A stretch of 64,000 nt of DNA from a virus (IMGVR_UViG_3300023202_000205:96001-160000); one strand, 5' to 3'; counted from the stretch's first letter, positions 9,721 to 33,467 are shown. Notes: generated by a model from the sequence alone, not told the origin. A program made the numbers and translations.

Positions 9721-9756
9721 ATCACAGATACCAAGCCTCTGAGCGGGCATAGCGAG
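9721..9756 (-). repeat. solitary CRISPR repeat B
   Basis: 35/36 match to the array repeat. Confidence 0.9.
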
Positions 9757-9832
9757 AGGGCTCTTATAACTCGGCTCAGGGAACCGTGTTATATCGCTAT
9801 CCGCGAGAGCCCCCATTTCAGTCGACCCTAGC
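9757..9832 (-). promoter_or_regulatory. CRISPR leader (copy B)
   Basis: Homologous to 8982-9057. Confidence 0.7.
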
Positions 9833-10530
9833 TTTATCCCCCTCGCCATGGGTTTCCCGCTCTCCTGCCAGATACAGCAGGTCTCGAACGGTGATGTGAA
9901 CAAACTCGCCGGGCCTGCCTTGTTCACGAGCCCAGTCGATAATCGACTGGATATGGTCAGGCCATTCCTGCTCTCCTTCAGTCTCCTCCGTCATAGTCTC
10001 GCTCTCTTTCGTGATAGGGCTCTGGATAAATGGCCAGGGTACATTTGACAATGGTGAACGGGGCTGACTTACCCGTTATACGCTCTTTGGCCAGCTCAAG
10101 CGCTTCTCCCTGTGTACGAGCGAACGTACCCCATCGGAACGCACCATGACTGGTAACAGCACAGTAACCGGGTACTGCCTGCTGCTTCACATATCCTTTC
10201 TTATACCGTGGTGGAATACTCATGCCTACACCTCCCGTACTTCTACTGGGAGAAACTAACCGGAAACTATCTGGTAGATTCCTCAACAATGTTTGGCCCC
10301 CAATGCGTCAAACCGCCTACCTTGGTAGATGCCTTCCACTTACCTCTGCTACGCTGCACCAACTTGTAGGCGCAGTCATCACAGATCAGTGCTTGAAGGT
10401 GGTCAGTATCGTTCCCACTTCCATACCCGAAGTGCATGGCGATTACACCTGCTTTAAAGAAACAACCGTCCTGGTGACAGGCGATGTGGTCTAGGCAGAG
10501 GACGCATTGTTCTTCTGTGGGTTGTCCCAT
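9818..10530 (-). other. three small hypothetical genes (9818-10051, 9978-10289, 10267-10530)
   Basis: Overlapping stop/start packing, internal ATGs with RBS. Confidence 0.5.
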
Positions 10531-10551
10531 GTGTGTATGTCCTATCGTGTG

Positions 10552-10950
10552 TTAGAATTGTTTCCCACCGTTCATGCGGGATCGGCTCTTGTTCATTCGA
10601 ATTTTAGCGAGAATGGCGTCGATCACGTTATGCCCACACCCCTCTGCGTGGTCGAGAATACGTATGATCGTATCAGCCAGCTCACTCTCAACAGACCGAA
10701 ACTCAGGTATCTTGTCATCGGGCGGATTCCCATGCCGAAGCCCTTCGAGAGCCTCCGACAGCTCGCTGTGATGGAGGGCAATCATCTCGCCCTCGTTTCG
10801 TTCTGCGTCCCAAAACCCCTTTTCCTTGGCAGTCTCGTGAATCTCCTCTTGAAGAGATCTTAGACCGAGCCGTATATGCTCATATCTGTAGGTATTCAGC
10901 ATGTCCTCCGTGAACCCCACTTCCTGTAGGTCGTCATCGAGTGGTCCCAT
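10552..10950 (-). CDS. MazG-like nucleoside triphosphate pyrophosphohydrolase
   Basis: IALHHSELSEALE...ESELADTIIRILD...KIRMN. Confidence 0.85.
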   Translation of the reverse strand: MGPLDDDLQEVGFTEDMLNTYRYEHIRLGLRSLQEEIHETAKEKGFWDAERNEGEMIALHHSELSEALEGLRHGNPPDDKIPEFRSVESELADTIIRILDHAEGCGHNVIDAILAKIRMNKSRSRMNGGKQF

Positions 10951-10959
10951 ACGTGTCTC

Positions 10960-11937
10960 CTAGTCCTCGTGATCAGCCTCCGCTGCCTTGGCAACGGTAA
11001 GCAGTTCGGTGATGAGTTCGAGCTTCTGCTTGTGGGCCTTCTTCAGGTAGGCGGGGGTACGGCGATCAGAGCGCTTGCGCAGGTCGGCGAGCATGTCAAA
11101 GGTGCCACTACCCATCGTTTGGGCCAACACACCTCCGATACCGTCTGCCTTACTGAGCAGATCAGCCGCGTAGGGCAACAATGTGAGAATCAGTGAGGTC
11201 ACGTCGTCTCGGAACATCTGCAGACGTCCTTCGATAGCATCTGCCAGCTCAGCATCTCCTTCTCCAGCTAAGGCTCGCGCAAGTAGCTCCTTGAGCTCAT
11301 CAGAGGTCTCCCACGCGAAAGCTTGGTACCTGCGCTGGCCTGTAACGACCCCTATCGAAGTAAGCCACCCCTGAAGGGTACGCGCCGTCTCAAGGGCGTG
11401 CACGACGGCAGGCTGCTTGCGTGCCTCGACCTGCGCACGATAGACAGCCATAGCCCGCTCCTTGTCCATCGCGCGTGCTACGGCGGCAAAGAAGTCACCA
11501 CTGATTGTATTATCAACTCCCCGCTTGGTTGCCTGCTTCTTAACAACCAACCGCCCCTTCTGGGCAAGCATCCAACCACAGCCCTCGGGAACCTCATCAG
11601 CTGCATTGACGACACCGGGCGCTGTGACGTACCAGAACATGTGACTATTGTCCATGAACCACGCGTTCTTATGGGGATTGTTGATTTCGCTCAAGAAATC
11701 ACTACGGCTGACCTTGACCTCAAAGGCCTCACGATGGATACCGTCACTTGGCCACATGCTGAATACCATAGCGTCGATCCACGTCGACTTGTGTGCAAAC
11801 CCTGTCGCCGGCGCTACCTGTTCGACGAAGACGTAGCGCTTCGAGTTGCCGTTGCCGGTCTTGTCGTAGCGCTCGCGCAGGAGGTCGATGACCTCCTCGG
11901 CCGTCCACTTATGCTTCTTGGCTTTGGCCATTTGCAC
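10960..11937 (-). CDS. MmcB-like PD-(D/E)xK nuclease domain protein
   Basis: IDAM...AFEVKVSRSDFLSE...FWYVTAPGVV...PEGCG. Confidence 0.75.
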   Translation of the reverse strand: MQMAKAKKHKWTAEEVIDLLRERYDKTGNGNSKRYVFVEQVAPATGFAHKSTWIDAMVFSMWPSDGIHREAFEVKVSRSDFLSEINNPHKNAWFMDNSHMFWYVTAPGVVNAADEVPEGCGWMLAQKGRLVVKKQATKRGVDNTISGDFFAAVARAMDKERAMAVYRAQVEARKQPAVVHALETARTLQGWLTSIGVVTGQRRYQAFAWETSDELKELLARALAGEGDAELADAIEGRLQMFRDDVTSLILTLLPYAADLLSKADGIGGVLAQTMGSGTFDMLADLRKRSDRRTPAYLKKAHKQKLELITELLTVAKAAEADHED

Positions 11938-12253
11938 CCTCTCTCTTGAGCTCGCCCAGGATCCGCTTGGCGATCGATGTTGGGTTGGCGTTCACGCCAT
12001 GCGTCCCAATCGCTGATTTCACGCCATTGGCAATAGCTGCCAAGCTGAATGGCCCTGTCAGACACCTGACGGCCGCCTTAGCTGCTTCTTTGGTCAACTG
12101 TCTCGGGCCCGAGAATCTACAGTTCGGGCACTCCAACTGCCAGGTAGCAGGGTTCACCGGGTGGTTCAGTATCAGGTCAAAGGTCAGCGGGAACCCGTGC
12201 GCGTTGAAGGCATGCGTGACCATATCAGCGTTGCAGTGCGGGCATTTCATCAC
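11909..12253 (-). CDS. Lar-like zinc-ribbon protein
   Basis: CPHC...CPNC followed by xxxKEAAKAA. Confidence 0.5.
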   Translation of the reverse strand: MMKCPHCNADMVTHAFNAHGFPLTFDLILNHPVNPATWQLECPNCRFSGPRQLTKEAAKAAVRCLTGPFSLAAIANGVKSAIGTHGVNANPTSIAKRILGELKREGANGQSQEA

Positions 12254-15219
12254 CTATGATGCTCCATATTCGTGATCATCTCTGCTTCCTTATCTCTGAA
12301 TGAGATGCCCATCACGAACCACCACTGAGGCCCTCCCCGTTCGATCTGCTCAGGCAGGAGTCCGAGATCCCACAGCGCGCTGATCAAGTGTGGCGTGTCG
12401 TTGATGTGATTCAGCATTTCTTGTTGGGTTTGCTCATCCATCCTAGTCTTCCTCTTCCAAAGGAGGGTGACATATAATCTGTCGAGAGAAAGCGTCAGCC
12501 TTTTTGATGACCGCCTTGGCCCGGTCGGCTAGCCGACCATCCTTGTTCATCGCAAAAGCGACGGTGCTCTCCTTCGAGCCGCTGGACTCCAGCTTACTCA
12601 ACTGGCTCCGGGCGTTGCTTTCGATCCGCTTATGCAGGAATCCCTGCTCAATCCGGTCGCGAATCTTCTGCACCTCTTCCTGCCGTCTTTTGGTGTCAGA
12701 CATGTGCATTTCCTTGTGTTAGGGCGTAATAAACCCCGTCTCGCCGGTGGTGAGTGCGATGCTGTCCTGTCGGAAGTCGGCAGCCGCCCGACGAAGACCT
12801 TCACGCAGCTGATGCAACTCGGCTGCATGGATCTCGACGACGAAGCAAGCATTCTGCCAAACTGCGTCGGGTATCGAATACCCTGAGAAGTGGATCTGCC
12901 CCAGCTCTCTCAGCACGGTATGCACGCGCCGGCAGAACAGCGCCCAATCGTGCTGGCCGAGCTTGTCGTCGGTGTTCCCAACCTGGATGACGGCGGTCAG
13001 CATCACGGAACCTCCATCACTTGGTCCGGCCGCACCAGATAGGTCCACAGCCGCGGAGGCTGCACCCAATCCTCACCTTCTTCGCCCGGCTCGCCACAAT
13101 ACCCCTGCCCGCTATCGAGCAGGAAGCGGACTTGTCCATCGTCGCAGGTCACGTATTGGCCGAAGTGCGCCTCGTAGAACAGCGCCGGCGAGCCATCGGC
13201 CTTCCGGTGGTTGAGTTTGGTGACAATGCTCAATCCGAGCACGGCACTATCGCCCCAACGGCCGTTATCTGGAAAGGTGTCGGGATTGTCTTCGTCGAAG
13301 ACTACCCACTGCGGAATGGCGCTGGCGGCAAGCAGATCGTCAAGCACAGGGCCAGGATCCTCGCCAGCGTCGAGAAACGCATTAAGAGTATCAACGGGTT
13401 TGGCAAGCTCTGGACTGGTCATGGATTAACTCCTGTTTCGTCAATGTTCTGTAAGGCACCTTCGGCGATGTTGGCCAGCTGATACGCCAGGTCACCCTGT
13501 TCTAATGTGAGGTTGTCGTGACACACACTGTGGATCTTACCCAACGTATCGAGCGCGCCCTTGAGACCGGCCAATGCTCGTGACAACGGATGCTCCGGGC
13601 ATGTCTTGATGTGTTCGGCCAGCGCCTCGGCAGGCACCTGCTCATCACCAGGCCCGTAGCGGTGGCCACAGTAGACGCAGTTGATGTAGAGCTTGGTCTG
13701 CAGGTCGTTGACCCACTTGCGCAGGTCACGCACGCGCTTCACGAGGTCGGACAAGCGCTGCAAGCCGAAGTGCGGGTCGTCCTCGTCGTACTTGCCGTCG
13801 AGCGCCTCCTCGAAGCGCATACAGGCGCCTTCGACGCCGGTGTCATTACCACGCCACCACCTTGGGTCGGTCTCGTCGTAGATCTCGTCGTCGGCCCACT
13901 GCTTGTAGCGTTCGAGCTCGGCCTCGGCTTCATAAGCACGAGACGCTGGGACCATCGGTATCTCCTGCATGATCTTACCGATCTTCAGAGGTGGCTCATC
14001 TGGCGGCCGCGGCAGGTCCGGATCAAGTGCATGCGCCGCCCACTTCTGCATCCACTGCGCTGTCGGGTCCTCGTTGCGGCCAGCGCCACGGATCTTCTCC
14101 AACGCCTCGGTGACATGGATGTGCGGCTTGTGCGGCGTAATCGAACTCGGCACCGCGGGCAAATGTCTGAGTGGGTTGTCCGCCGGTGGTAGTTGAGCAT
14201 TCCGCTCCAGCGCCTGCTCTCCAAGCTCAGAAAGATATGCCATATCACGTTGCAGGCCGGGGTTTCTGCTCATGGCCTCCCGCACGTCCTCTAAGGCCTT
14301 CTGCAGCTCAGGCCCGGAGGCCCTGGCGGCGAGCGCAGCGTCTTCGATCGACTGCGGCCAAACCTGGAAGCCGTGATCGATGAACCACTTTATGACCTGC
14401 AGGTTGGCGACATTGTCGCCCATGTAGTCGATGACTTCGCCAACGCGGATCTCGTAGTGGTAATAGTCCACTTCGCGGTCCATGGACTCGACGGCCACCT
14501 TGAAATGCAGGTGCTCCTTCCGCATGGCGCCGGGGTCGGCCGCGTAGAGGTACATGCCATACTCGGGGTGGTAGCTGACCTTATCGCCATGGTCGTCATC
14601 ATCGTCGTCTTCGTCGGCGAGCACGATGCCGCTGAAGTCGAAGGCGCCGGCGGCCTGGCAGATCTCGAGCAACTCGTCGATCTCGTTTGGAGTGAGTTGG
14701 GTGACGCTAGTTCGCATAAGGATGTTCCCTCTGGGAGATCGGACTGGGTAAGTCACCTCCATTTGGTGTTGCGCGTTCCTTGGGAGTCGCCTCCCTTATT
14801 GTCCCACCCATGGTTGCGGCCTCGGTAAGATCATCTACACGGATCTCTCGACTACCGACCTTGACAACATAGCTCATAGTTCTTGCTCCTTTGGATTCTC
14901 ATGGTCCGTCACCGCTGACCCAGGCGGTAGCTCACCAAAAAGACGCTCAGCAAGATAGCGGATATTTGTTCGGATCCTCCGCTTCAACCTGCGACCATTC
15001 TCCGTAAGCTCCTCCTCCGGTTGGATACCGTAGGTCGTTACCAAGAATGTAATCTCACCCCACATCTCTTGCTCTTCGCTTTCAGTCATGGCGCTCCTTC
15101 AACAACGACTGACGTCGTCTCCGACGCTCCCTCGCTAACTTGGTGTATAAATACCAAGTAGTGGGTGCTCGCTTTGTTACCTTGATCCTGTGAGCTTTCA
15201 TAGCCCCCTCGTAGTAAAA

Positions 15220-15252
15220 GTGTTCACGCGAACACAGTTGTCCGCGTGAACA
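15220..15252. promoter_or_regulatory. tandem palindromic boxes, copies 3 and 3b
   Basis: GTGTTCACGCGAACAC plus TGTCCGCGTGAACA, 19 nt upstream of an ATG with RBS. Confidence 0.7.
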
Positions 15253-15272
15253 GGTGTTGAGTTAAGAATGCC

Positions 15273-15392
15273 CTATGCCCGCCTGGTGAGACAGGAGATT
15301 GTGTCCACCTTGTCGTCACACAGGTAAGCCGCCTGATCGAAGAAAACCCAGAAACTCTTGCCATCTTTCGCCTCGACTATCAAACTTTGCAC
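15273..15392 (-). CDS. 39-aa hypothetical protein (below ORF-track cutoff)
   Basis: GAGGGGGAG RBS, GTG start, MQSLIVEAKDGKSFWVFFDQAAYLCDDKVDTISCLTRRA. Confidence 0.45.
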   Translation of the reverse strand: MQSLIVEAKDGKSFWVFFDQAAYLCDDKVDTISCLTRRA

Positions 15393-15418
15393 CCACTCCC
15401 CCTCGTCGGGTCGCGTCT

Positions 15419-15449
15419 GTCACAGATACCAAGCCTCTGAGCGGGCATA
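15419..15449 (-). repeat. solitary CRISPR repeat C (31 of 36 nt)
   Basis: gtcacagataccaagcctctgagcgggcata exact; the five leader-side nt are missing. Confidence 0.85.
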
Positions 15450-16659
15450 TCAAGCGCACCACGCCGCTGATCTTGGTGGTTAGCTGGCCCCCGGCACCCC
15501 ATAGTTCTCATGGATCCACTGCAGCGCAGGCAGGCTCGTGTTACGGATCGCTTCGTGCAGCTCCTTCACGTAGTGAGTCTCGCCGTCGTGCATGTGGACG
15601 AACTTCGGGCAAGCCCACAGCTCGACGGTAAGGCCTTCGGCGTGATACGTTATCGCAGTGTAATGGTCGGCCTCACCTTGCTCACGGCGGTCTTCCGTCA
15701 AACGAATGAGCAGAACCGCCATATCGCCCAGTGAGAGGTCCTTGAGGATCTTGGCGGCCGTCTCTTTGGTCTTCATCACGTCTCCTGGTGTTCCGTGGCG
15801 CCGGGAGAAGACTGGCTACCACTGATGTCGGTGTGACCGCAGTCGTCCTCATCATCAGTTACCTGCATAATGATCGGCTCGCCGGTCGCCGGGCACGGGA
15901 CCCAGTGGGTCCATTCATCGGACCCGCCAGCTGGGCGGCTGAACTTCCGGAAGGTCAGGTCGGAATGCGTGCCGCCGCATCGCGCGCAGTCACGCACGGT
16001 AACAGGCCGCGGGAAGCGCTCAGCGTTATCGGAGCCGTGAGCTGCGGCCTCCAAGCGAGCAACAACGCAGTCGTCATCGTGCCCTTTGCCCGTGTGGTAA
16101 GCGGGTCCGCCGCATAGTGAGCAGTTGGCGTCCACCTGGTTAGTCAGCTTGACGATGGCATCACGTGCTTCACGTAGGAGTTCGGCAGTTGGTTGTGTCA
16201 TTGATCGATCCTTTGGTAGTTGCATAGGTTGATCACAGAACCCGATCACGCCGTGTTCTTCGGCGGCTTGCGTCTCACGCTTCACCTACTCCCCTTCCAA
16301 TATGGTCATCTCCCCGTCTCTCACCTGCTGCTGCAGCGCATCTCGCTCGAAGGTGAGGGCGCGGACGGTTTCGACCAGTTCCGGTGCAGCGGCAAGTAGG
16401 TCTGCGTCCGCACGGGATATCAGACCTCCTAGATACCCGTGACCGACAGGGCCGTAAACGTCCCAGGATTGCTCCTGTTCGTTCCACACGGCATGATACG
16501 GCCCCGGCGTGTACCCAGTGGGTAGATCTTCAGATGTCGGCATCGTTGGCCTCCTTTTGACGATGGGTTTGAGCGTCCTCTCTCCCGAGTTCGTAGTACC
16601 TGAGGTAACGCTTACCCCAGGTTCGGGCAACATGGCCCCGCCCGTCATAGCGGCCAAGA

Positions 16660-22440: not shown

Positions 22441-25089
22441 CTAGCTCTGGTGAGCTATGGTGGTCTCGTCGAAACCACAGATGGATTCGTGAGCTTCGCG
22501 ACACGTTGTCGCGTTAGCGTCGACAGGCATGGCGTACACCCGGCCAGTCGAGTTATCTGAGCCATACAGATATTGGTCTGCGTGCATGTCCTGAACCAGG
22601 ATACGGGGAAGACCGTGGTACATGTCCGAGTCAACTAATTTAGTATCGGTATCCCCTAGATATCGCTCAATCCCGTATCGTTCGATCAATACACGACGCA
22701 CCTCTGCGTTTACTTCTCCCCCAATCTCTTCGAGGGTTATCAAGTGAGGTTCCATGATCACGTGTTCTTTCACCCGCACACCATGCCAGTGATATAACGA
22801 CCACCCGTCCCGCCACCTATGCGAAGGACCTTCCTCACAATGTGCGCGGTTTTGCCTGTCTGTAAAGACTACCTCGGGGTTTTCACTTACTACACAGAAC
22901 TTTTCATGAAAACACTGAAAACCACCCTCAGCCGCATCCTCGTAATGTCTCCACTTCTCATACTCCGGGAGATCCAACCAACCCATCTCCCGGAAAGCTG
23001 TGATGAAAGTAATCCAACCGCCCCACGTGCGGCCTCCCTGGTAAACACGGCCCCACTTAGTGGCACAGCCAACAGCATTCTTTATAGAAATGCCAGTCCT
23101 ACAACAGAACAAAGCAACGCCGCATAACACCTGCGAAAGAGTATCCTTTGACCACTTAACCTCTTTCGCCTTACTCATTTCAGCATACACAGCTTCGCGG
23201 GTGGCGTCGCCCACAGCTTCGTGGGTGGCGTCGGACACAGCTCTGAGGGTGGCTTCGTCCACAGCTCTGTGGGTGGCGTCGGACACAGCTCTGAGGGTGG
23301 CGTCGGACACAGCTCTGAGGGTGGCAGCATACACAGCTTCGCGGGTGGCGTCGTCCACAGCTTCGCGGGTGGCGTCGTGCACAGCTCTGTGGGTGGCGTT
23401 GTGCACAGCTCTGAGGGTAGCGTCGGACACAGCTCTGTGGGTGGCTTCGATCACAACATCGCCGGTGACGGCATACACAGCTTCGCGGGTGGCTTCGTCC
23501 ACAGCTCTGTGGGTGGCGGCATACACAGCTTCGCGGGTGGCTTCGTGCACAGCTCCGAGGGTGGCGTCACCCACAGCTTCGCGGGTGACGTCGTCCACAG
23601 CTCTGTAGGTGGCTAAGTCCACAGCTTCGCGGGTGGCAGCGAACACAGCTTCGCGGGTGGCGTCGTCCACAGCTTCGTAGGTGGCGGTGTCCACAGCTTC
23701 GTGGGTGGCGTCGTCCACAGCTTCGTGGGTGGCGTCGTCCACAGCTCTGAGGGTGGCGTCGTGCACAGCTTTGCGGGTGGCGTCGCTCACAGCTCTGAGG
23801 GTGGCGTCGTGCACAGCTTCGAGGGTGGCGTCGTCCACAGCTCTGTAGGTGGCTAAGTCCACAGCTCTGAGGGTGGCGTTGTGCACAGCTTCATGGGTGG
23901 CGTTGTGCACAGCTTCGCCGGTGGCGTCGTTCACAGCTCTGAGGGTGGCGATGTCCACAGCTTCGAGGGTGGCGTCGTGCACAGCTCTGTAGGTGGCGTT
24001 GTGCACAGCTATGCGGGTGGCGTCGTCCACAGCTTCTTGGGTGGCGTCGCCCACAGCTTCGTGGGTGGCTTCGTGCACAGCTTCGCGGGTGGCGTCGTGC
24101 ACAGCTCTGTGGGTGGCGTTGTGCACAGCTCTGAGGGTAGCGTCGGACACAGCTCTGTGGGTGGCGTCGTCCACAGCTCTGCGGGTAGCGTCGGACACAG
24201 CTCTGTGGGTGGCGAAGTGCACAGCTCTGAGGGTGGCGTCGTCCACAGCTCTGCGGATGGCGATGTGCACAGCTTCGCGGGTGGCGTCGCCCACAGCGTC
24301 GGACACAGCTTCGCGGGTGGCGTCGTCCACAGCTCTGTGGGTGGCAGCGAACACAGCTCTGAGGGTGGCAGCGAACACAGCTTCGCGGGTGGCGGTGTCC
24401 ACAGCTCCGAGGGTGGCGTCGTCCACAGCTTCGTAGGTGGCGTCGCCCACAGCTTCGTGGGTGGCGGCATACACAGCTTCGCGGGTGGCTTCGTCCACAG
24501 CTCTGTGGGTGGCGGCATACACAGCTTCGCGGGTGGCGTCGGACACAGCTCTGAGGGTGGCGTCGGACACAGCTCTGAGGGTGGCAGCGAACACAGCTTC
24601 GCGGGTGGTGGCGTCCACAGCTTCGTGGATGGCTTCGTGCACAGCTTCGTGGGTGGCGTCGTCCACAGCTCTGTAGGTGGCTAAGTCCACAGCTCTGAGG
24701 GTGGCGTTGTGCACAGCTTCATGGGTGGCGTTGTGCACAGCTTCGCCGGTGGCGTCGTTCACAGCTCTGAGGGTGGCGTCGTGCACAGCTTCGAGGGTGG
24801 TGTCGTGCACAGCATCGCGGGTGGAAGGCCTCGGCATAGACTTAGAGGACTCCTGCCCCTGACGATACCACCACAAGGCAGCCGTACCATAAACCAATGC
24901 CATCTGCAGGGGGCTATCAACAATCACTACTTTCGGTTCCGATAGTCCTGCAGATTCGTATAACCCTCGAATACCGCTGATAACGCGGTCCCGATCACAA
25001 CGCTCGGTAGAGCGCGTATGTTCGATCCACTTTTCTGTATGTTTCTTCAGGTTCTCGTAGTCCTGTTCCGTTAAGTCAAGGTGCAGCAT
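22441..25089 (-). CDS. DUF6745-like protein with a large internal 8-aa repeat tract
   Basis: N-term EKWI..TRST...GLYESAGL..P.VVIVDSP; C-term HCEEGPS..WRDGWSLYHWHGVRV...NAEVRRVLIERYG; ATG at 25089 has an AAGGAG RBS. Confidence 0.8.
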   Translation of the reverse strand: MLHLDLTEQDYENLKKHTEKWIEHTRSTERCDRDRVISGIRGLYESAGLSEPKVVIVDSPLQMALVYGTAALWWYRQGQESSKSMPRPSTRDAVHDTTLEAVHDATLRAVNDATGEAVHNATHEAVHNATLRAVDLATYRAVDDATHEAVHEAIHEAVDATTREAVFAATLRAVSDATLRAVSDATREAVYAATHRAVDEATREAVYAATHEAVGDATYEAVDDATLGAVDTATREAVFAATLRAVFAATHRAVDDATREAVSDAVGDATREAVHIAIRRAVDDATLRAVHFATHRAVSDATRRAVDDATHRAVSDATLRAVHNATHRAVHDATREAVHEATHEAVGDATQEAVDDATRIAVHNATYRAVHDATLEAVDIATLRAVNDATGEAVHNATHEAVHNATLRAVDLATYRAVDDATLEAVHDATLRAVSDATRKAVHDATLRAVDDATHEAVDDATHEAVDTATYEAVDDATREAVFAATREAVDLATYRAVDDVTREAVGDATLGAVHEATREAVYAATHRAVDEATREAVYAVTGDVVIEATHRAVSDATLRAVHNATHRAVHDATREAVDDATREAVYAATLRAVSDATLRAVSDATHRAVDEATLRAVSDATHEAVGDATREAVYAEMSKAKEVKWSKDTLSQVLCGVALFCCRTGISIKNAVGCATKWGRVYQGGRTWGGWITFITAFREMGWLDLPEYEKWRHYEDAAEGGFQCFHEKFCVVSENPEVVFTDRQNRAHCEEGPSHRWRDGWSLYHWHGVRVKEHVIMEPHLITLEEIGGEVNAEVRRVLIERYGIERYLGDTDTKLVDSDMYHGLPRILVQDMHADQYLYGSDNSTGRVYAMPVDANATTCREAHESICGFDETTIAHQS
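23182..24823 (-). repeat. about 67 tandem 24-bp units, GCTGTG-N6-GCCACC-N6 (AVxxATxx)
   Basis: Counted from the translation; one half-unit and longer internal block duplications. Confidence 0.95.
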
Positions 25090-25381
25090 TGTGCACTCCT
25101 TTCCTGTAGAGCAGGGAACGGCTCTTACCGTCCCTTGCAGTTTTCTAGAATAGCTGATAGTTTTCAAACAACCAGCATAGAAGGGTCACTAGAGAGTATC
25201 GTCATAAGTCGTGTGTCTGTAGGGGTTTACGTACCCCGCGATACCAGACCTTATCAGCCCTCCCAAAACAACCCCACTTTACCCATCTTTCTGACACATG
25301 TCGCCACAGACGACAAAACCCCATTATCCAAATAACACCCCTTTGATCACTTTTTGAGCGATAACAAAACGACTCTTTGAG

Positions 25382-26691: not shown

Positions 26692-26726
26692 GTCTCGAAT
26701 TCCTTGAAGACAGAGTGATAGACGAA

Positions 26727-26750: not shown

Positions 26751-27286
26751 CTGTTCCGAGGTGTTTGTGAAAACTCGGGTTAGGACTTTTTTGAGCTGTG
26801 AACTAGCTCAGCGCGATGGGCTTATCGTCCAGTAATAGACGACGGTGTGGGAGAAATGATAATCAGAGCCACACACCTCACACATGGGAAGGCAGTTCCA
26901 GCCATCCGCGAGAGTGTCTGAGGGGGTCATCTTTATGACGGGCTCCTCATTTGTACAAAGACAGCTGCTCTCAAAAACAAGTAGCACGTCCGTGTCATCG
27001 ACACGGGCTGGAAGACGTTCCATGGTCAGATCCTTTCCAGGCTCGTAAGTGGTCTCGGATGTACTCCCTAACAGCCCATTCACCACACTCCAAGGTGTCC
27101 GATGGAACCGTCAATGAGAGTACCCCATAACGTTTCCGCCATTTCTTGTTGATGCGCTTCTTCGGGTGGGATCGGACCTGAACGTCCACGCGATGGTCAG
27201 TTTCCATAGTACCTCCTCGCAGTTGGTTAGTAACTTCGCGGAAAAAGGAGAAAAACCAAAAGAATAGCAGTGACGATCGTCATGAA

Positions 27287-27472
27287 TATGTCAAATCCAG
27301 TGACGCCCGCGTAGCCCGCAGATTGGCTCTGTATGATCACAATCAAAAACCAAACCGCTAAAAGCAGCCCAGCTAGGATTATGTCAAATCCAGTGACGCC
27401 CGCGTAGCCCGCAGATTGGCTCTGTATGATCACAATCAAAAACCAAACCGCTAAAAGCAGCCCAGCTAGGAT
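27287..27472. repeat. exact 93-bp tandem duplication inside a small membrane-protein ORF
   Basis: Two identical copies, 31 codons in frame (ILAGLLLAVWFLIVIIQSQSAGYAGVTGFDI). Confidence 0.9.
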
Positions 27473-28143: not shown

Positions 28144-28949
28144 TCGTCACCCTTCCCAAAAGTGGCTTTGCTCAGATACTCGGCCAGAAACGGGTTTTCC
28201 ATCCGAGACACCTGGCCCCTCGCGTGAACTCGCAGATCCCGCTCCCGCATCGGCGTAATACGACCCCTGAGGACCTCGCAGCGCAAAAACAGCAAATACG
28301 TATCCAGAGCGTCGCACATGGCGTAATTGAAGATCTGCTGTTGTTTTCCATCCTGCCACATCTGAAAAACCTGAGACCCGTCAATACCCATGCTCTTACC
28401 TGCTCCTCCGGCAAAGTAAGCAAACATGTCCAACCCACCCGGAATTCGTTGACCGCCAAAATTCGAGATGAATTCCTGACAGTCGAAATGGGCGTCGGTA
28501 TTGAACCGATATCGGGGATGCTTGTAATTAGGCCCCTCCTGGGAAAACCAGTGCCGGGCTTCCTCAATACCGTAACGAAACGCATAGGTCTCCAAAACCG
28601 GCATATCGAAACCCCGACCGTTGTAGGTCACCAACGTTGGGCCACCATATTTCTCCCAGCCCCGCCAGAATTTGCGGGCAACCCCCTCAGGGCCACCCTC
28701 CAAATCGTGAACCGCCAAAACCTGCCTTAAACTCAGGTCAGGCCCAGCCTTGCAGAGGCCAATCGCAACAGGGCTGTGCCACGGAATCGGCAGAAACGTC
28801 GATTCCCCCAATTCCCGCTGCTCCTCCTGCCACGTAGTATAGAGATCCTCACCCCGCATAGTGCTACCGGGGTATTTGAAATCCCGCAGCAACTGGATAT
28901 CCGGAATGGTCTCAATGTCGAAAACGAAAATGTCAACGCCGTCCTTCAT
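28140..28949 (-). CDS. stand-alone PolB-type 3'-5' exonuclease
   Basis: FDIETIP (ExoI), TYNGRGFDMP (ExoII), Y...D (ExoIII); ATG at 28949 with GAGGAG RBS. Confidence 0.85.
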   Translation of the reverse strand: MKDGVDIFVFDIETIPDIQLLRDFKYPGSTMRGEDLYTTWQEEQRELGESTFLPIPWHSPVAIGLCKAGPDLSLRQVLAVHDLEGGPEGVARKFWRGWEKYGGPTLVTYNGRGFDMPVLETYAFRYGIEEARHWFSQEGPNYKHPRYRFNTDAHFDCQEFISNFGGQRIPGGLDMFAYFAGGAGKSMGIDGSQVFQMWQDGKQQQIFNYAMCDALDTYLLFLRCEVLRGRITPMRERDLRVHARGQVSRMENPFLAEYLSKATFGKGDE

Positions 28950-28967
28950 AGGGACTCCTCTCAAATT

Positions 28968-28983
28968 GTGTTCGCGCGAACAC
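28968..28983. promoter_or_regulatory. palindromic box, copy 5 (perfect palindrome)
   Basis: GTGTTCGCGCGAACAC about 18 nt upstream of the exonuclease ATG. Confidence 0.75.
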
Positions 28984-29113
28984 AGATCAGACTGTGCCCA
29001 AACCACCTCTGAAAAACTGATTCAGTCGAACCACAAGCAGATTGGCCTGGTTGATGAGTTTCATCGGAAGACTCCTACCGGTTTCCGGTTCAGATATCGA
29101 ATGTGCCTCGGGT

Positions 29114-29488
29114 TCAGTTCAACTCAGCCTGCTCCTTCCGAGCCTCACTGGTCAACTGCCTCAGGCGATTTTCGAACCGCCTCTTGGCTTCCTGGTCGAT
29201 CATCTCAACCAACTCCGTCTCCTGCATCTCCTCCTGACTGCAAACGAAAGCAGGCCCCACCAGCAAGCTGCCTACATGGCCAGAGAGAATAGCGGCGTAA
29301 GAGTTCAGGTCGAGATTCAGCAGTAGCCCCTCGTCGTCTACGTAGATGTCCCACCCACAGGCGGTGCCTTCAAGAATCGGAACTGCGCAGAAAAGCCCTG
29401 AAGGGAAAATCTGGTGTGTGTTGTTGAGTAGACGGTGGTGTTCCACGTGGAACATCACCTCTCCATTCGGCTCTATGATGAGTGCCAT
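29114..29488 (-). CDS. DUF3846-like protein
   Basis: ALIIEPNG...IYVDDEGLLLNLxLNxxA...LVGPA. Confidence 0.7.
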   Translation of the reverse strand: MALIIEPNGEVMFHVEHHRLLNNTHQIFPSGLFCAVPILEGTACGWDIYVDDEGLLLNLDLNSYAAILSGHVGSLLVGPAFVCSQEEMQETELVEMIDQEAKRRFENRLRQLTSEARKEQAELN

Positions 29489-29736
29489 GATGCTCTCTTT
29501 CTCAGCGAATAGGAGGCGCAGTCACGCTTTACGCGTCCTGCTCTCCTTCTTTTTCCTCTTGCTCTACAATCAGACGGTCCAACGCCTCGTTGAAACTCAT
29601 CCCCTCGGTCCGCAACTGGTCGAGCCGCTTGGCCAACTCCCTATCGGCCCCTACCCTGCGCCACATACCAATCCGCTCCGACCCGCTCCTGGCCCTCGGA
29701 GGTGGATCACCAAGGTCGTAACATATCTGGTAACCT

Positions 29737-29772
29737 GTCACAGATACCAAGCCGCTGAACGGGCATAGCGAG
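29737..29772 (-). repeat. solitary CRISPR repeat D
   Basis: 34/36 match to the array repeat. Confidence 0.85.
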
Positions 29773-29880
29773 CCGGCGAGATGGGTAGCGACGGAATCAG
29801 CCGTATCAGAGCTCCTCACACCAACTAGGTTGTCCGTAGTCCCGCAGTTTTGGAGCCCCGAGCCCAAAAACGTAGTCCAG

Positions 29881-31030
29881 CTAACCCCAGTAGCGCTCGA
29901 AGCTAGCAAGCTTCCCGAACTTTGGCACTCCTGGCCCTCTCTGCTCTCCGTCTCCTCCTCCATTGTCTGCTCCTTCTGTGCGCGATTGGATCCACCGAGC
30001 ATCTATATCCCAGTAGCGGTAAAACGCTGTGCCTCTCGTATGGCCTCGTAGGGGTTTCTCGAATTCAGTCTGCCACAGGCAGAGCGACGAGACAATCCAT
30101 CGAATGGCCTGCCGGACCTGCTTGTTGTCCACCCCTACGTAGTCTATAAGAGAAGGTATGGTATGCGGTCCCTGCTGAAGGGCATGGTAGACCACTGGAA
30201 AGATCGCCTTGGTGACCAGATACACCCTATGGGTCGCTGGTCGCAGCCCATGTTCACGGATTCTCGTGAAAAGAGGATCCACGTAGGTCTCAATACGGTC
30301 GAGCACCTCCTGTAGCGCATCCTCTGCAAGTTGCTGGTCTGGGTCTGAGTCCATGACTTGCGCCTCCCGAGCCCAATACTCGTTACTGCCACTACCAATC
30401 AAGCTGTTCAAGCTGTTTAACGTAGCAATACTCCATACAGCTAGGCTCCCTATACTCCAGCGGAGCAGCTTGCTTCACCCGCGTTACAACGTTTATGAGC
30501 GACTTTCTCAGGGCAACACCTACGTGTTGCGATGCTATTGATTTTACAATACCCAACGGAAATAGGTCCATGCTGTGGTTGTCATAGCGGGGACGACAAT
30601 TATCAACGAAGGGAACGAGGTTCTCAGGCATAGTCCGAAAAAGATCGATCCCGACATCAACGGCGAGCTGAGTACCAATCCAGCCCCACCCGGGCTCTAA
30701 CTCCGAATCACTGGGCTGCTCCTCGTAGCCGTACTCCTTGACGATCTCGACCACTTTCTCGGCAACCGCCTGAGCTGTGTGGGCTGACGCTTCAGAAGAA
30801 GGGATCCGCCGCCGATCGGTGACCAACCAACCGTTTATGGGGACGTCAGACAGCTGGATCTTATATCCTCGGAGAAAGCTGCCACAGCAATCGTCCGAGA
30901 AAAGCAGGTTACCCAACCTGCCGGGCTGGTCGGAAAAGAAGTCCTCCACAAAGACTGTGAAATCGAGATAGGGTAGGCTGATCGATAGATTTCGGACGAT
31001 GATTCTGTCTTCTTGCGTGTTGGTCTCCAT
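29881..31030 (-). other. two hypothetical genes (29881-30411 region, 30392-31030)
   Basis: Long protein-like ORFs, co-oriented. Confidence 0.55.
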
Positions 31031-31044
31031 CCGGATCTCCTCTG

Positions 31045-31787
31045 CTAGCTTTTGAGTGATTCGAGTATTTCCTGTGGTTCTGGGATCGACGAATACTCCT
31101 TGGGATACATTTTCGTGTCATAGGCCATAAGTAGCTGTCTGATCTCGTTCGACAAGGCTGCTGGAGTGTACCCGTGGGTGCCCCCTATGCCTACCTTGCC
31201 GAGGTGCCCGCGAGAACCTCTGAAACAGTGCACCGCCAAATACCCCGTCAGTCCTCCTGGGAAAATAGACGCCTTTTTAAACAAGACGTGAATCGGGTCA
31301 CGCATACAAACGTTCACAGAAGCAGCAATGCTACAATACGGATCAGCCAGTAATGCCCACCTGAGGTTGTTAAAGGGAATGTAGACCACCTCATTTAACC
31401 AAGGAACCCAAATGGGAAAGTCTTTCACTTTATCAAAATATACCTTACGTACACTGACTCCCCCAAGAAACGACAAGTTATTCCGGTCCGGGTGTAGGTA
31501 CTTTCGGGAATAATCTCTTATAGCCTTCGCTGTAACACCCCTAAAAGGTATGGGTTGTGAGTTTCCCACGACCAAATCGAATAAGCGATCCCTTGAGGGA
31601 GTACCAACTAGCTCTCTGATATAGTCAACAAGGACGTCATTCAGGCCACACACGAGATCGTAATAGGTGCTCTGGCTGGTAGATTCCGGAACCACCTCCC
31701 CTCGGGACCACGCTCTCCAAGCGTTAATGAACTCCATACCAGTACAGTAGTTGCGCGGTAGTGGCTGTTTACTGTCACTGCTCAGCA
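31045..31787 (-). CDS. hypothetical protein, FIxxWxx(Y/W)SxG family
   Basis: NYCTGMEFINAWRAWSRGEVVP near the likely start. Confidence 0.65.
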
Positions 31788-32494
31788 TGGGGAATGAACT
31801 CCTTGGTAGAGGGAGTGGGGACTGGAGCGAAGTGCCTTCCCACACGGCTCCCCATTTCGTTCGGCCATGTCCTCCCAAAAACCGTGTCAAGCAACTCGAT
31901 GGCAACACAGCGAGCTACTGGGTTGATCAGACTGTCCTCGAAACCAGGTGTTCTGACAAACGTGCGCCAGCGCTTGAGATGCTGGAACAAATGGATCGAC
32001 TCGCCCAAGCTCAGGAACCACCCTCGAGATCTCAGGGATCCCGGAAACGGGTTACTTACAACAAGTACTGCATGCTTGACCACCTGTATACGGGTCCCGT
32101 CGAATACGAGCACCCCACAGGTGTTCCTAGTTTCTACACTAAATGAGCCTGCTAAACGCTTGATCTGCTCTGGGACTTCCCCCTCAAGAAGGACCTCTAT
32201 TTCCCCCATCAAGATGCTCACAGATAGTTTATCACGCACACTTCTTGTAAGACCGAACGGAGGCCTCCCTTCCCAACAAGATCCGAAAGAGTCTACCATG
32301 TCACGCCACTCGTAGTTCTTCGCTAGGAATTGACGAAAAAGACGGCAGCTCAGGTCATCGAGCCACCTCATATCCCCCTCTCCAGGAATCCTCTCCGAGC
32401 TCGTAGGCGTAGGAACTGCCTTCCCCAAGGAATAGCAGCGCCACGCTCTTATGAATTCTGTAGGTGATGTGTAATCACTCTGTCGTGGTATCAT
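31775..32494 (-). CDS. hypothetical protein, FIxxWxxYSxG family
   Basis: DYTSPTEFIRAWRCYSLGKAVP. Confidence 0.7.
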   Translation of the reverse strand: MIPRQSDYTSPTEFIRAWRCYSLGKAVPTPTSSERIPGEGDMRWLDDLSCRLFRQFLAKNYEWRDMVDSFGSCWEGRPPFGLTRSVRDKLSVSILMGEIEVLLEGEVPEQIKRLAGSFSVETRNTCGVLVFDGTRIQVVKHAVLVVSNPFPGSLRSRGWFLSLGESIHLFQHLKRWRTFVRTPGFEDSLINPVARCVAIELLDTVFGRTWPNEMGSRVGRHFAPVPTPSTKEFIPHAEQ

Positions 32495-32505
32495 GAGACC
32501 TCCTG

Positions 32506-33375
32506 CTACGTTTTGTAAAGCGCGCCCAGCTCAGATCCAAGCTCCCCTGGCCAGTAAGTCTCCCCGTAAATGCGATCCAAGATCTGTACAGCTAACCCAC
32601 GAGCCACCCAGGTATCCGGGGTCACCCAGCCAGGGGTCTGGGTATCAATTTCTGAATCCGAATCCATAGCAAGCGTCAGTCTCTGAAGATAGAGAGGTAA
32701 GTTTACCCGTGCTAGTTCTATAAAGTAGCAGTCCGCGCAGTCACTACATCTCTCATGTGCTATCTCGAAGAAAGCAGCTCCATCAGGGAGGGGCGGCACC
32801 TCTACTACAGTTCTTATGGAAACCAACGGCATCGTTGGGCGACCCGCTACCCGTGACGTTAAATTGAATAGCTGACATTTATCGTCGAATACCCTCACAT
32901 GCCGGTCATCAAAAGAGACCTCTCTTATCGGAATACGGAAAGGGTAAGGGTCAAGCACGGGACATTCACAGACGTCGTCTATCAGGGCGCGAATCTCCTC
33001 GTTGATATCCGGAGCGGTTGCTGAATTGTTAAGCAGGTCTTTGACTCTGCTGGTAAACCTGGCCTCAACAAACATCCGTTTATCGAGTGGTATTTCAACG
33101 ATCTCCTCTATTCCCTCTCTGTGTATGAACCCCCCACCTGCGTACTCAACAGATTCTATGAATTCCTTTTCAAGGTTTGGTAGGAACTCATTTTCATAAA
33201 AGTGTCGAAAACGAGTAGGTGATTCGAAACGTAGGGGGGCGTGCATCTCCCTGTCATATTCCATCACTGGCGGGAAAGTTGGCTGAGGGACTTCCTGACC
33301 AAGAGAGTATTTCCTCCAAGCACTGATGAACTCCATGGGAGTCTTGTAATGGGTTAGTTGTGGTTTTTCGGTCAT
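32506..33375 (-). CDS. hypothetical protein, FIxxWxxYSxG family
   Basis: HYKTPMEFISAWRKYSLGQEVP; C-terminal VARxxAxxxLDxxxGxTxWPxExGS shared with 31775-32494. Confidence 0.7.
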   Translation of the reverse strand: MTEKPQLTHYKTPMEFISAWRKYSLGQEVPQPTFPPVMEYDREMHAPLRFESPTRFRHFYENEFLPNLEKEFIESVEYAGGGFIHREGIEEIVEIPLDKRMFVEARFTSRVKDLLNNSATAPDINEEIRALIDDVCECPVLDPYPFRIPIREVSFDDRHVRVFDDKCQLFNLTSRVAGRPTMPLVSIRTVVEVPPLPDGAAFFEIAHERCSDCADCYFIELARVNLPLYLQRLTLAMDSDSEIDTQTPGWVTPDTWVARGLAVQILDRIYGETYWPGELGSELGALYKT

Positions 33376-33412
33376 TGATCAGCTTCCTTACTAAGTCAGT
33401 AAGATAGTCTTC

Positions 33413-33467
33413 GTCGCAGATACCAAGCCTCTAATCGGGCATAGCGAGAGGGCTCTTATAACTCGGC
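33413..33467 (-). repeat. solitary CRISPR repeat E plus first 19 nt of the leader
   Basis: 33/36 match; agggctcttataactcggc identical to leader B. Confidence 0.85.

Follow-up and report, generated by a model that had tools for sequence, protein, structure and literature searches.

An uncultured phage of 179 kb carries six solitary CRISPR repeats that are part of its own Cas12m (type V-M) system and not of a host Cas6 system. The reading that we favour, at a probability of roughly 45%, is that they are sense-strand modules for Cas12m binding and processing, each in the 5' leader of one of six transcription units, among them that of cas12m, and that they would give a Cas12m-dependent feedback.

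A search of the window, which is the whole stretch of 64,000 nt analyzed here, with the 34-nt repeat core returned nine matches, all on the plus strand as written, where shuffled sequences led to an expectation of none. Five of the matches make up the array at 8661-8981, and the other four are genuine CRISPR repeats that stand alone at 9721, 15419, 29737, and 33413, exactly where a sequence-only reading had placed them; its gaps to the minus-strand start codons (69, 26, 70, and 37 nt) and its two units with leader sequence were recovered as well, the leader being retained at 9721 (116 nt, 90% to the array leader) and partially at 33413 (∼35 nt). The arrays are transcribed on the minus strand, with a conserved leader on the high-coordinate side and a degenerate terminal repeat on the low side, and the order is thus leader, repeat, gene (Table 1). 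Two further solitary units lie outside the window at genome positions 36523 and 168435, both directly following terminator-like hairpins, the latter 89 nt upstream of cas12m with a score of 51.3 bits. All six units are intergenic and on the strand of their flanking genes, they are co-oriented with both arrays and genes, and they sit non-randomly in 5' regions, with start codons 14, 26, 37, 69, 70, and 89 nt downstream. These distances alone are weakly informative, since the crude ORF map is ∼93% coding and any intergenic element would fall near a start codon; the real signal is the intergenic, sense-strand placement. Within the window, the HTH_17 gene is located between unit 2 and the leader of array A1, and unit 3 begins 25 nt past the stop codon of a 99-aa gene (15480-15779) and precedes an ORF that starts with GTG, not ATG.

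Table 1. Solitary repeat units, array, leaders, and downstream genes in the window.
Feature	Position	Strand	Details
Array A1	8661-8981	-	5 repeats, 4 spacers (40/34/30/37 nt); degenerate terminal repeat 8661-8696
A1 leader	8982-9140	-	∼160 nt conserved among all three arrays
HTH_17 (MerR/excisionase-type) DNA-binding protein	9259-9651	-	130 aa; ATG 9651, 69 nt downstream of unit 2
Solitary unit 2	9721-9756	-	1 mismatch in 36, at last base; 48.1 bits
Array-leader copy	9757-9832	-	directly upstream of unit 2
Putative 39-aa ORF	15273-15392	-	GTG start at 15392, 26 nt past unit 3; strong Shine-Dalgarno
Solitary unit 3	15419-15454	-	2 mismatches, both in first 6 nt; 51.3 bits; no leader
45-aa ORF	29529-29666	-	weak RHH/VapB-antitoxin-like matches; ATG 29666, 70 nt downstream of unit 4
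Solitary unit 4	29737-29772	-	2 mismatches, positions 14 and 19; 49.9 bits; no leader
289-aa protein	32506-33375	-	ATG 33375, 37 nt downstream of unit 5
Solitary unit 5	33413-33448	-	3 mismatches; 47.8 bits
Partial leader of unit 5	33449-33485	-	∼35 nt, TTATAA box included

Counting the copies genome-wide, a check named in the same reading, gave 33 in the whole 179,364-bp record, all in a single orientation and distributed over arrays of 5, 9, and 13 repeats and the six solitary units; a covariance-model search of the record found no further diverged copies, the next match having an E value of 0.55. The A1 leader carries a TTATAA box 8–13 nt upstream of the first repeat, and a block of 116 nt comprising leader and repeat (9717-9832) is a duplicate with 90% identity to 8942-9057. 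A leader is recognizable at two of the six units, and the four leaderless units are still 86–94% identical to the repeat. Together the arrays hold 24 spacers, one of which, spacer 2 of array 3, is identical over 36 of 36 positions to a site in the phage genome itself; this perfect self-target lies just downstream of a sigma-like gene and is flanked by GGC. The phage also has its own RNA polymerase in addition to the sigma-like gene.

The effector gene cas12m (P0001) occupies genome positions 166465-168345 on the minus strand. As a single sequence, P0001 matches the PDB Cas12m 23vw with an E value of 2.3e-40, and the family profile matches 23vw (2.6e-144), Cas12m2 (1e-72), and GoCas12m (4e-63) over positions 11-549 of 564, with a PADLOC Cas12u1 match to P0001 of 9e-71. 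No second Cas12m-like gene was found elsewhere in the record. The minus-strand order is cas12m, a 213-aa gene, leader, and 9-repeat array, with no adaptation module; the array has the orientation of cas12m, likewise in the related locus L012, the layout of effector and same-strand array recurs in L012 and in the viral contig G001, and a gene of ∼200 aa after cas12m is conserved in all three loci of the clade. For a tracrRNA or anti-repeat, zero opposite-strand repeat matches were found at ≤8 mismatches and none by covariance model, at the level of sequence. By these features, the locus qualifies as type V-M, having a full-length effector, an adjoining array, a predicted use of crRNA alone, and the corresponding scaffold. 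In P0001 and its two closest relatives, the RuvC-I aspartate is replaced by methionine and the RuvC-II glutamate by proline, which is compatible with a predicted absence of DNA cleavage, and three of the four Cas12m2 PAM-contact residues (Trp, Asn, and Gln) are kept by transitive alignment, hinting at a T-rich PAM. In published Cas12m, pre-crRNA processing inside the repeat is independent of RuvC, and DNA is bound, not cut (PMC11013384). RNA processing by the RuvC-degenerate P0001 is putative.

The repeat contains a stem of positions 16-19 with 29-32 and a loop capable of forming a pseudoknot, in which GGC can pair with an upstream GCC (positions 9-11 with 20-22); this pairing is invariant in the family, with L029 showing UCC/GGA at the same positions. 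Among 14 family repeats, the stem covaries at pair 19:29 (AU, CG, GC, and UG, with both sides changed in eight sequences) and at pair 18:30 (GC, UA, and AU). The crRNA of Cas12m2 likewise has a stem and pseudoknot, and its nucleotides -36 to -30 are disordered (PMC10442227); the structure of the repeat fits this description, as compared with the text of that report and not by structural alignment. The solitary units retain all scaffold positions, their changes being confined to the dispensable first six bases or to family-variable columns. The 15 substitutions across the six units occur at positions 1-5, 14-19, or 33-36, with none at 7-13 or 20-32, and only two of them fall in otherwise family-invariant columns, one being a pair-keeping wobble, for which a simple binomial gives ∼1 in 100. 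In unit 5, the change at position 16 converts a C-G into a U-G wobble, and the mismatch at position 19 of unit 4 breaks one pair of the 4-bp stem. By covariance model, five of the six units score 47.8–51.3 bits, compared with 42.8–45.0 bits for the decayed terminal repeats of the arrays, which carry changes at scaffold positions 22, 35, and 18. The unit at genome 36523 departs from the repeat solely in its dispensable first five bases, which have been replaced and now form the U-tract of the upstream hairpin. When folded, the units did not pair consistently with the ribosome site, and their stability was not out of the ordinary (z -0.3 to 1.3).

In the sequence-only reading, the repeats would be cleaved by host Cas6, with an 8-nt handle left behind, and host Cas7/Cascade or Csm subunits would cap phage mRNAs. 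Its repeats proved to be real, non-random, gene-oriented, and in 5' regions, two with leader sequence, but the proposed partner and chemistry did not hold up and are now exceedingly unlikely. The phage has its own Cas12m, and neither Cas1 nor Cas6 was found in the record; the repeat has an internal stem and pseudoknot scaffold instead of a Cas6 hairpin, and its family goes together with Cas12m genes in six independent loci. No host array with this repeat was found in 185,579 GTDB species genomes beyond one 20-mer match in 596 Gb, which is at chance level, and the precedent for such a host partnership is general, in that Racr RNAs bind Cas6f and Cas7f (PMC10651486). A broader version, in which several phage mRNAs are bound, cut, or capped by a Cas protein and titrate it in turn, may survive if the phage Cas12m takes the place of host Cas6 and Cas7.

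Under the favoured reading, the four units in the window, the unit at genome 36523, and the unit before cas12m would be orphan Cas12m crRNA scaffolds within leaders. Published biochemistry indicates that Cas12m needs crRNA alone, cuts just upstream of the scaffold, and holds a guide of ∼18–20 nt, from which we infer that a transcribed leader scaffold would be bound by Cas12m. The enzyme would cleave the RNA at the 5' boundary of the repeat and remain on the new 5' end, shielding the next ∼20 nt and separating the downstream cistron from upstream transcription. A ribosome site within ∼25 nt would be blocked, as may apply to the unit at genome 36523, to unit 3 (15419), and marginally to unit 5 (33413), and each transcript would use up one Cas12m in a non-targeting complex. 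Such a feedback would tie cas12m and five other transcription units, including those of the HTH_17 and RHH-like regulators, to the level of free Cas12m and hence to the crRNA load. Transcription through the units is assumed here, and the two units right after terminator-like hairpins require read-through or an unrecognized promoter. The distance from repeat to ribosome site is non-uniform, so a single occlusion mechanism cannot serve all six units, and gene conversion from the arrays could maintain the similarity of the units without selection.

Similar units are present on two other Cas12m-bearing contigs. On contig L018, a repeat, 28 nt, a second repeat, and ∼35 nt precede the cas12m start codon, and the repeat core agrees with that of this phage at 28 of 30 bases while the Cas12m proteins are only 25% identical; no local target was found for this mini-array. 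The viral contig G001, whose cas12m has an intact D-E-D, has two solitary units with full scores, one lying 36 kb and the other 8 kb away from its array. Both are antisense to the neighboring genes, which encode RecT and a zinc-ribbon protein, and each has a sigma-70-like promoter of its own whose start site is close to the repeat. Placement in a 5' leader is therefore not a general property of the repeat family. No syntenic relatives of the phage were found.

Several other explanations were weighed against this one. The units may be relics, left when arrays shrank to one repeat through repeat-repeat recombination or when leader-repeat modules were duplicated, now functionless and tolerated only for their position between genes, which we regard as unlikely. 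Such an origin agrees with unit 2 as a duplicate of 116 nt of leader and repeat, 775 nt from A1, whose downstream flank shares a TGAC-type low-complexity run with the trailer of array A2, with the decaying leader at unit 5, with the progressively truncated terminal repeats of the related array L019, and with a Francisella solitary unit that has been interpreted as a vestige of a V-A locus since lost (10.1101/2023.03.03.530964); with no Cas1/Cas2, a collapsed array would be unable to regrow. However, decay does not readily account for four units that have lost any trace of a leader and yet keep their repeat identity, for changes that spare every scaffold position when the terminal repeats of the arrays do not, for six units on one strand with their flanking genes, or for a unit in which exactly the dispensable 5' bases have been swapped for a terminator tail. 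A function of the repeat DNA as a portable promoter or other DNA-level signal by which the phage RNA polymerase drives the next gene is, for its part, very improbable. Repeat-embedded promoters occur in type II-C arrays, the two units right after terminator-like hairpins (one before cas12m) leave no space for a separate promoter, a weak extended -10-like string is found near the 3' end of the repeat, and a phage with its own polymerase and sigma-like gene might use such a signal; but the conserved columns covary as RNA pairs and not as promoter hexamers, there is no -35 element, and the arrays have a separate conserved leader. A consensus scan of the six units detected no promoter, with the proviso that the consensus of the phage's own promoters may differ.

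Three further possibilities retain Cas12m as the partner. In type V, nothing more than a repeat with a guide behind it is needed for a complete crRNA, so that each repeat with the next ∼20 nt could act as a one-spacer crRNA, like CreR, crlRNA, or Cracr, steering Cas12m in trans to a host gene, a rival phage, or a phage promoter. The leader promoter at units 2 and 5, the sigma-70-like promoters at the G001 units, the standalone repeats upstream of cas12a and the CreR autorepression known for V-A, and the self-directed spacer of array 3 all speak for such guides; nevertheless, no second copy or seed match of at least 9 nt was found for the six guides in the 179-kb genome, bar Shine-Dalgarno-like strings, the L018 mini-array is likewise without a local target, and two of the guides are the ribosome site of the next gene, one with the start codon as well, which leaves little freedom for a foreign target. 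Steering in trans is accordingly rather improbable. More doubtful still is a role as Racr-type decoys, solitary repeat RNAs that soak up the Cas12m of a host or of a rival phage or plasmid into useless complexes. Viral solitary repeats are proven RNA anti-CRISPRs, three of them against Cas12a (PMC10651486), V-M systems are common on plasmids and occur on some prophages, making them likely competitors (PMC11656645), and the close similarity of repeats between Cas12m proteins of only 25% identity makes cross-binding conceivable. However, such decoys would work against the system of the phage itself, which has the matching effector and 24 spacers, the units belong to the family of its own arrays with no host found to carry the repeat, and four of the six have no promoter of their own and none has a following terminator, so that they read into genes. 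We hold it to be equally doubtful that each unit is a cis-repressor, in which the nascent leader RNA would load Cas12m and the guide, identical by construction to the DNA just downstream of the repeat, would form an R-loop with the template strand where the same gene begins, with the Cas12m level setting all six units and the array self-spacer acting as a timed roadblock on late genes. This would require either that Cas12m binds transcription-opened DNA without a PAM or that the 3' end of the repeat (GAC) is tolerated as a PAM. If it were true, the Cas12m level would control cas12m, two small DNA-binding regulators, and three other units, and part of the gene programme of the phage would run on CRISPR.

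Among known systems, the V-A standalone units and CreR resemble the present case in having a handle-keeping repeat upstream of a single effector, with feedback proposed (10.1101/2023.03.03.530964, Shmakov et al.; 10.1101/2023.03.10.532045, Liu et al.). The parallel cases are the unit 89 nt before cas12m (genome 168435), in which the repeat-like part keeps the handle at a cas gene, and the two-repeat mini-array before the L018 cas12m. In contrast to V-A, the subtype here is V-M and phage-borne, and five further units stand before non-CRISPR genes, spread over 132 kb. CreR requires a partial match, of at least ∼9 PAM-proximal positions, between its spacer-like part and a PAM-flanked site in or next to the regulated cas promoter, whereas for the cas12m-proximal unit no seed of at least 9 nt was found anywhere in the phage genome. 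The nearest approach was a stretch of 8 matching nt in the 3' part of the array repeats, following a TTG. With no trans target in the phage genome, guiding of the CreR type is not supported. Type I-D mini-arrays regulate "cargo" genes such as toxin-antitoxin pairs and transcription regulators (10.1101/2023.03.03.530964), and they are similar in that repeat-derived units lie upstream of small regulators (here HTH_17 and the RHH/VapB-like ORF). Those mini-arrays are within a CRISPR-cas locus and have predicted promoter targets, while the present units are dispersed in a viral genome and no target was found.

Racrs are single intergenic viral repeats (Camara-Wilpert et al., 2023; PMC10651486), and the units share with them the expectation of loading a Cas protein with a useless guide. 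Racrs mimic host repeats, usually as small RNAs with their own promoter, and their carriers have no cas genes or arrays, whereas this phage has cas12m and three arrays, and its units match its own arrays and effector and read into protein-coding genes. Similarly, Cracrs are virus-encoded and crRNA-like, in some cases present as several units, and lie apart from a normal immune array (10.1101/2024.10.29.618823), but they are defined by at least nine PAM-proximal matches to the target of a host CreR/CreA and send host Cas proteins to cas promoters of the host, whereas the effector here is viral. Cas12m family members silence by binding DNA (PMC10442227; PMC11013384). The phage system agrees with the V-M effectors MmCas12m2, GoCas12m, and MsCas12m (PMC10442227; PMC11013384) and with the phage-borne MvCas12m (10.64898/2026.09.14.751636) in its effector of ∼600 aa, adjoining array, apparent use of crRNA only, lack of adaptation genes, and non-canonical RuvC. 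It differs in having three arrays and six solitary units, the report on MvCas12m making no mention of solitary units (10.64898/2026.09.14.751636), and in its RuvC residues, Met / Pro(-Asp) / Asp, which lie outside the D-E-D, H-D-D, and N-D-D types described so far.

The window contains nine copies of the repeat core in a single orientation, where chance would give none, and the whole IMG/VR record (179,364 bp, rated 96% complete, with the window at bases 96001-160000) holds 33 copies on one strand, made up of arrays of 5, 9, and 13 repeats and six solitary units, two of which lie outside the window (genome 36523 and 168435). A covariance model of the repeat family recovered exactly the same 33 copies (E <= 1e-9) and no diverged further solitary units across the record, the next match being noise (E 0.55), and scattered partial repeats were absent from the genome except for one directly after the cas12m-proximal unit. 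The repeat search bore out the sequence-only reading in describing four co-oriented solitary repeats in the window, each a short distance before a start codon and two of them with leader sequence; the gaps it gave are correct, with all four genes on the minus strand and GTG as the second start, and the genome-wide count of copies that it suggested is the one reported here. The arrays are transcribed on the minus strand, as are nearly all neighbouring genes, because every array has a conserved leader of ~160 nt next to its high-coordinate end and a degenerate terminal repeat at the low one. At the solitary units, the order of elements is (leader), repeat, short gap, and gene; all six are intergenic and on the strand of their flanking genes, an orientation in which gene-relative and array-relative components are not fully separable because ~87% of the phage coding bases share that strand. 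The six downstream reading frames are those of a 274-aa protein without assigned function, the HTH_17 protein, a 39-aa product, a 45-aa RHH/VapB-like product, the 289-aa protein, and Cas12m, the phage's own type V-M effector. No homology was found between the HTH_17 gene and the HTH_17 gene near cas12m in L029, a contig from other DNA.

Locations of solitary units, arrays, and associated features (window coordinates unless marked; L009 and L027 are other stretches of the same phage genome, L012 and L028 contigs from other DNA)
Feature	Location	Strand	Context or basis
CRISPR array, 5 repeat copies	8661-8981	minus (transcription)	repeat-core search
Solitary unit	genome 36523		start codon 14 nt after repeat; follows terminator-like hairpin
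Solitary unit	9721	minus	69 nt before gene of HTH_17 DNA-binding protein; array leader with TTATAA box
Solitary unit	15419	minus	26 nt before 39-aa ORF, GTG start
Solitary unit	29737	minus	70 nt before 45-aa RHH/VapB-like ORF
Solitary unit	33413	minus	37 nt before gene of 289-aa protein, no assigned function; array leader with TTATAA box
Solitary unit	genome 168435	minus	before cas12m; follows terminator-like hairpin
cas12m, 626 aa	L009:6465-8345 (genome 166465-168345)	minus	between second array and solitary unit at genome 168435; structure and profile matches
~200-aa genes directly after cas12m	L009:5813-6454 (213 aa); L012:2818-3411; L028:1826-2443	minus (L009)	27% identity, E 8e-15 and 4e-14
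Second spacer of 13-repeat array	genome 172683-172718 (L009:12683-12718)		matches genome 19251-19286 (L027:3251-3286), 36/36
16-nt palindrome, copies in window	6961, 9174, 15220, 19920, 28968, 34337, 43631, 52345		

As a single sequence, the 626-aa protein matches the solved Cas12m structure 23vw (E 2.3e-40), and its family profile matches 23vw (2.6e-144), Cas12m2 (1e-72), and GoCas12m (4e-63); the protein also matches the PADLOC Cas12u1 model (9e-71). In an alignment with 12 homologues, the RuvC-III Asp is retained, the RuvC-I Asp is replaced by Met and the RuvC-II Glu by Pro (with Asp next), and the RuvC-I and RuvC-II residues are likewise replaced in the two closest relatives (43% and 39% identity). 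Cas12m is described as working with crRNA alone and as processing its own pre-crRNA by a RuvC-independent cut just upstream of the scaffold; it holds an ~18-bp heteroduplex, needs a T- or C-rich PAM, and silences through DNA binding without cleavage (PMC11013384; PMC10442227). V-M systems occur on plasmids and some prophages (PMC11656645), and a 2026 preprint places one in a myxophage (10.64898/2026.09.14.751636). Directly behind cas12m, a gene of ~200 aa is present in all three loci whose Cas12m carries Met or Thr (RuvC-I) and Pro (RuvC-II), which makes its product a candidate accessory protein of this clade. The 213-aa phage version has no match in Pfam, PHROGs, NCBIfam, or PADLOC and falls in unnamed Atlas clusters only, and its AlphaFold model (pLDDT 72) gives weak matches to ParB/Noc-like DNA-binding proteins, all with E > 1.

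Related repeats beside other Cas12m genes were recovered with a degenerate family pattern at the IMG/VR loci G001 and G002, on three metagenome contigs, and, beside the gene for the closest Cas12m homologue, on the Logan contig L012. RNAalifold on 14 aligned repeats predicts a 4-bp stem (positions 16–19 with 29–32) with covariation at pairs 19:29 (AU, CG, GC, UG) and 18:30 (GC, UA, AU); the loop GGC can pair with an upstream GCC, and a distant family member has UCC and GGA at those two triplets. The Cas12m2 crRNA is a stem plus pseudoknot with disorder over the first seven nucleotides of the repeat (PMC10442227), and the predicted structure of the phage repeat agrees with it and not with a Cas6 substrate, for which a 3' hairpin with an 8-nt handle would be expected. 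The sequence-only reading had instead proposed that host Cas6/Cas7 processes or caps phage mRNAs, Cas6 cutting repeats so as to leave an 8-nt 5' handle. This idea is now barely credible: the whole phage record has no Cas6 (nor Cas1, nor a second Cas12m gene), the repeat is of the Cas12m family, the effector is phage-encoded, and the conserved fold is a stem with a pseudoknot-capable loop.

Our preferred reading, to which we give a probability of about 0.45 and which combines these observations with published Cas12m biochemistry, is that the solitary units are sense-strand modules for Cas12m binding and processing in 5' leaders, which would give Cas12m-dependent feedback. Provided that the leaders are transcribed and the phage Cas12m still binds the scaffold, it would cut the transcript at the 5' edge of the repeat and remain on the new 5' end, covering ~20 nt, in a Cas12m-leader complex that would be non-targeting. 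The ribosome site would then be covered at the gene behind genome 36523 and at the 39-aa ORF, and at the 289-aa gene Cas12m would reach only its edge. For cas12m, the arrangement would amount to simple negative feedback relieved by crRNA load, which is the logic of CreR minus the DNA target. Riboswitch-like pairing of the repeat to ribosome sites was also considered and dropped, as folds of the six leaders were inconsistent in such pairing and not unusually stable (no z-score below -0.3). The minimum-energy fold of the cas12m leader (L009:8328-8470, minus strand) joins repeat positions 4–19 to the opening 18 nt of the cas12m frame through 14 pairs, and may be a chance product, its stability being like that of shuffles (z 0.03).

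A rather unlikely alternative is that the units are relics of arrays, as the array leaders kept at two of them might suggest. All 15 substitutions across the six units fall at repeat positions 1–5, 14–19, or 33–36 and none at 7–13 or 20–32; two of them hit columns otherwise invariant in the family, one being a C-G to U-G change, and the chance of such avoidance of invariant columns is ~1 in 100 in a simple binomial that allows for the two units included in the repeat alignment. The arrays' terminal repeats, by contrast, are altered at scaffold positions 22, 35, and 18 and reach covariance scores of 42.8–45.0 bits, against 47.8–51.3 bits for five of the six solitary units. At four units a leader can no longer be recognised although the repeat keeps 86–94% identity, a pattern that neutral decay of a copied leader-repeat block hardly explains. 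The unit at genome 36523 has lost precisely the dispensable first five bases, whose replacements form the U-rich tail of the upstream hairpin, and the unit at 29737 has one broken stem pair.

Somewhat less probable still is that the units act as solo guides aimed at a target in the host or in a competitor. Searches of the phage genome for trans targets of the six guides (18–20-nt windows with <= 4 mismatches; exact 9–12-nt seeds) returned nothing but Shine-Dalgarno-like strings, the 20 nt behind each unit have no second copy in it, and the hallmark of CreR/crlRNA, partial matching to a promoter site flanked by a PAM, was not found within the phage. Spacers of arrays 2 and 3 had no blastn match in INPHARED, and the 24 array spacers had none across all related loci; their sole match is one perfect self-match, so a PAM is not derivable from spacer targets. 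The self-matched site, in sense orientation, is located 65 nt into a 218-aa ORF that is immediately preceded by a sigma-factor-like gene (phrog_351) and followed by baseplate genes. On the 5' side of the site the flanking bases end in GGC, and a TTG stands two bases before that; the match is either a roadblock for self-regulation or, for want of a PAM, harmless. By transitive alignment, the phage protein keeps three of the four residues with which Cas12m2 contacts the PAM, which makes a T-rich PAM the better guess. DNA targeting in cis by the solitary-unit guides is therefore unlikely, the 5' flank of each guide at its own locus being the repeat end GAC (GAT at 9721), which is no known Cas12m PAM. 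Decoys like Racr, which would tie up a Cas protein with a useless guide, are improbable here; viral solitary repeats are so far known as decoys against host Cas proteins (PMC10651486) or hijackers of host regulators (10.1101/2024.10.29.618823), and the effector here is the phage's own. A promoter borne by the repeat itself is more doubtful again. At 9721 and 33413, the TTATAA box sits in the leader, 8–13 nt before the repeat.

Spacers in arrays of this repeat family measure ~30–40 nt, with a few of 17–21 nt (L009:5237-5256, 5365-5384, and 11970-11988; also in G001 and the contig L019), near the ~18-nt heteroduplex length read by Cas12m. In addition, the last 11–13 nt of the repeat are duplicated right behind a solitary or terminal repeat at L009:8423-8434, at L022:4987-4999 (G001), and in the L019 array tail, exactly in G001 and with one extra base at the cas12m-proximal unit of this phage, where 8 nt common to the array repeats stand behind TTG. 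The duplicated tail could be what is left of a second, truncated repeat, or it could be a guide directed at the repeats.

Judged from sequence, solitary units are a recurring, not universal, companion of mobile-element Cas12m systems, in variable context. On contig L018, two repeats separated by 28 nt end ~35 nt before the start of a Cas12m that retains the RuvC-I Asp, and no CreR-like local target was found for this mini-array. In G001, which has a D-E-D Cas12m and a ~30-repeat array, two solitary units with full scores lie at distances of 36 kb and 8 kb from the array; these resemble free-standing small RNA genes and not 5' leaders, because they are antisense to the adjacent genes for RecT and a zinc-ribbon protein and each has a sigma-70-like promoter just upstream. 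No solitary units were present in the DNA examined of L012, G002, and L029. L017 was dropped as a solitary unit, since the contig begins inside another repeat and thus holds an array end, and possible hidden repeats ~97 nt upstream of cas12m at the starts of L028 and L031, suggestive in L028 only, were left out of the evidence. In searches for close relatives of the phage, neither IMG/VR nor the metagenomes contained the exact repeat core, a 20-mer gave one chance-level match in GTDB, Cas12m peptide patterns found nothing in IMG/VR, and the genes of L017 and L018 had no homologues in this phage except Cas12m (25% identity).

Units resembling repeats have been described at cas genes in bacterial loci of V-A and class 1 type. 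The closest known cases are standalone repeats upstream of cas12a in V-A loci (adjacent to it in ~34%) and CreR (10.1101/2023.03.03.530964; 10.1101/2023.03.10.532045), together with cargo-regulating mini-arrays (10.1101/2023.03.03.530964), Racr (PMC10651486), and Cracr (10.1101/2024.10.29.618823). The phage system differs from them in being of subtype V-M with effector and units both viral, in the dispersal of six sense-strand units across 132 kb, ahead of non-CRISPR genes, and in the lack of a detectable target for these units; a literature search found no paper describing such V-M solitary units. Here a single virus has a predicted binding-only effector, arrays, and six scaffold-intact units before its own genes, including that of the effector. 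If the preferred reading is true, a virus would be employing a CRISPR protein to regulate its own transcripts by RNA binding or RNA guidance, and the units might be turned into compact 5' leader modules that respond to the protein in Cas12m-based circuits; if they are relics instead, they record array decay and dispersal in a cas1-less viral system.

Several other features of the genome were observed. About 650 nt of non-coding DNA (33449-34095) lie just upstream of unit 33413 and contain a near-perfect hairpin of ~150 nt (33736-33885), which draws spurious miRNA-precursor matches, and four iteron-like repeats of ~16 nt; the region may be a replication origin or control region. The 16-nt palindrome GTGTTC-NCGN-GAACAC, intergenic with A/T-rich flanks, has 19 copies genome-wide, several of them ~20 nt ahead of a start codon, and forms an intergenic signal class distinct from the solitary repeats that may be a phage promoter/operator or a bidirectional terminator. 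On the minus strand, a 908-aa ORF (22441-25167) consists mostly of a 24-nt (8-codon) tandem repeat in ~60–70 copies of ~80% identity, and an exact 93-nt tandem duplication (27284-27469; two copies, 99–100% identical) lies among short ORFs. Seven tRNA genes (Gln-CTG, Gln-TTG, Ser-TGA, Pro-TGG, Asn-GTT, Arg-TCT, and Thr-TGT) are found at 1549-2404, also on the minus strand.
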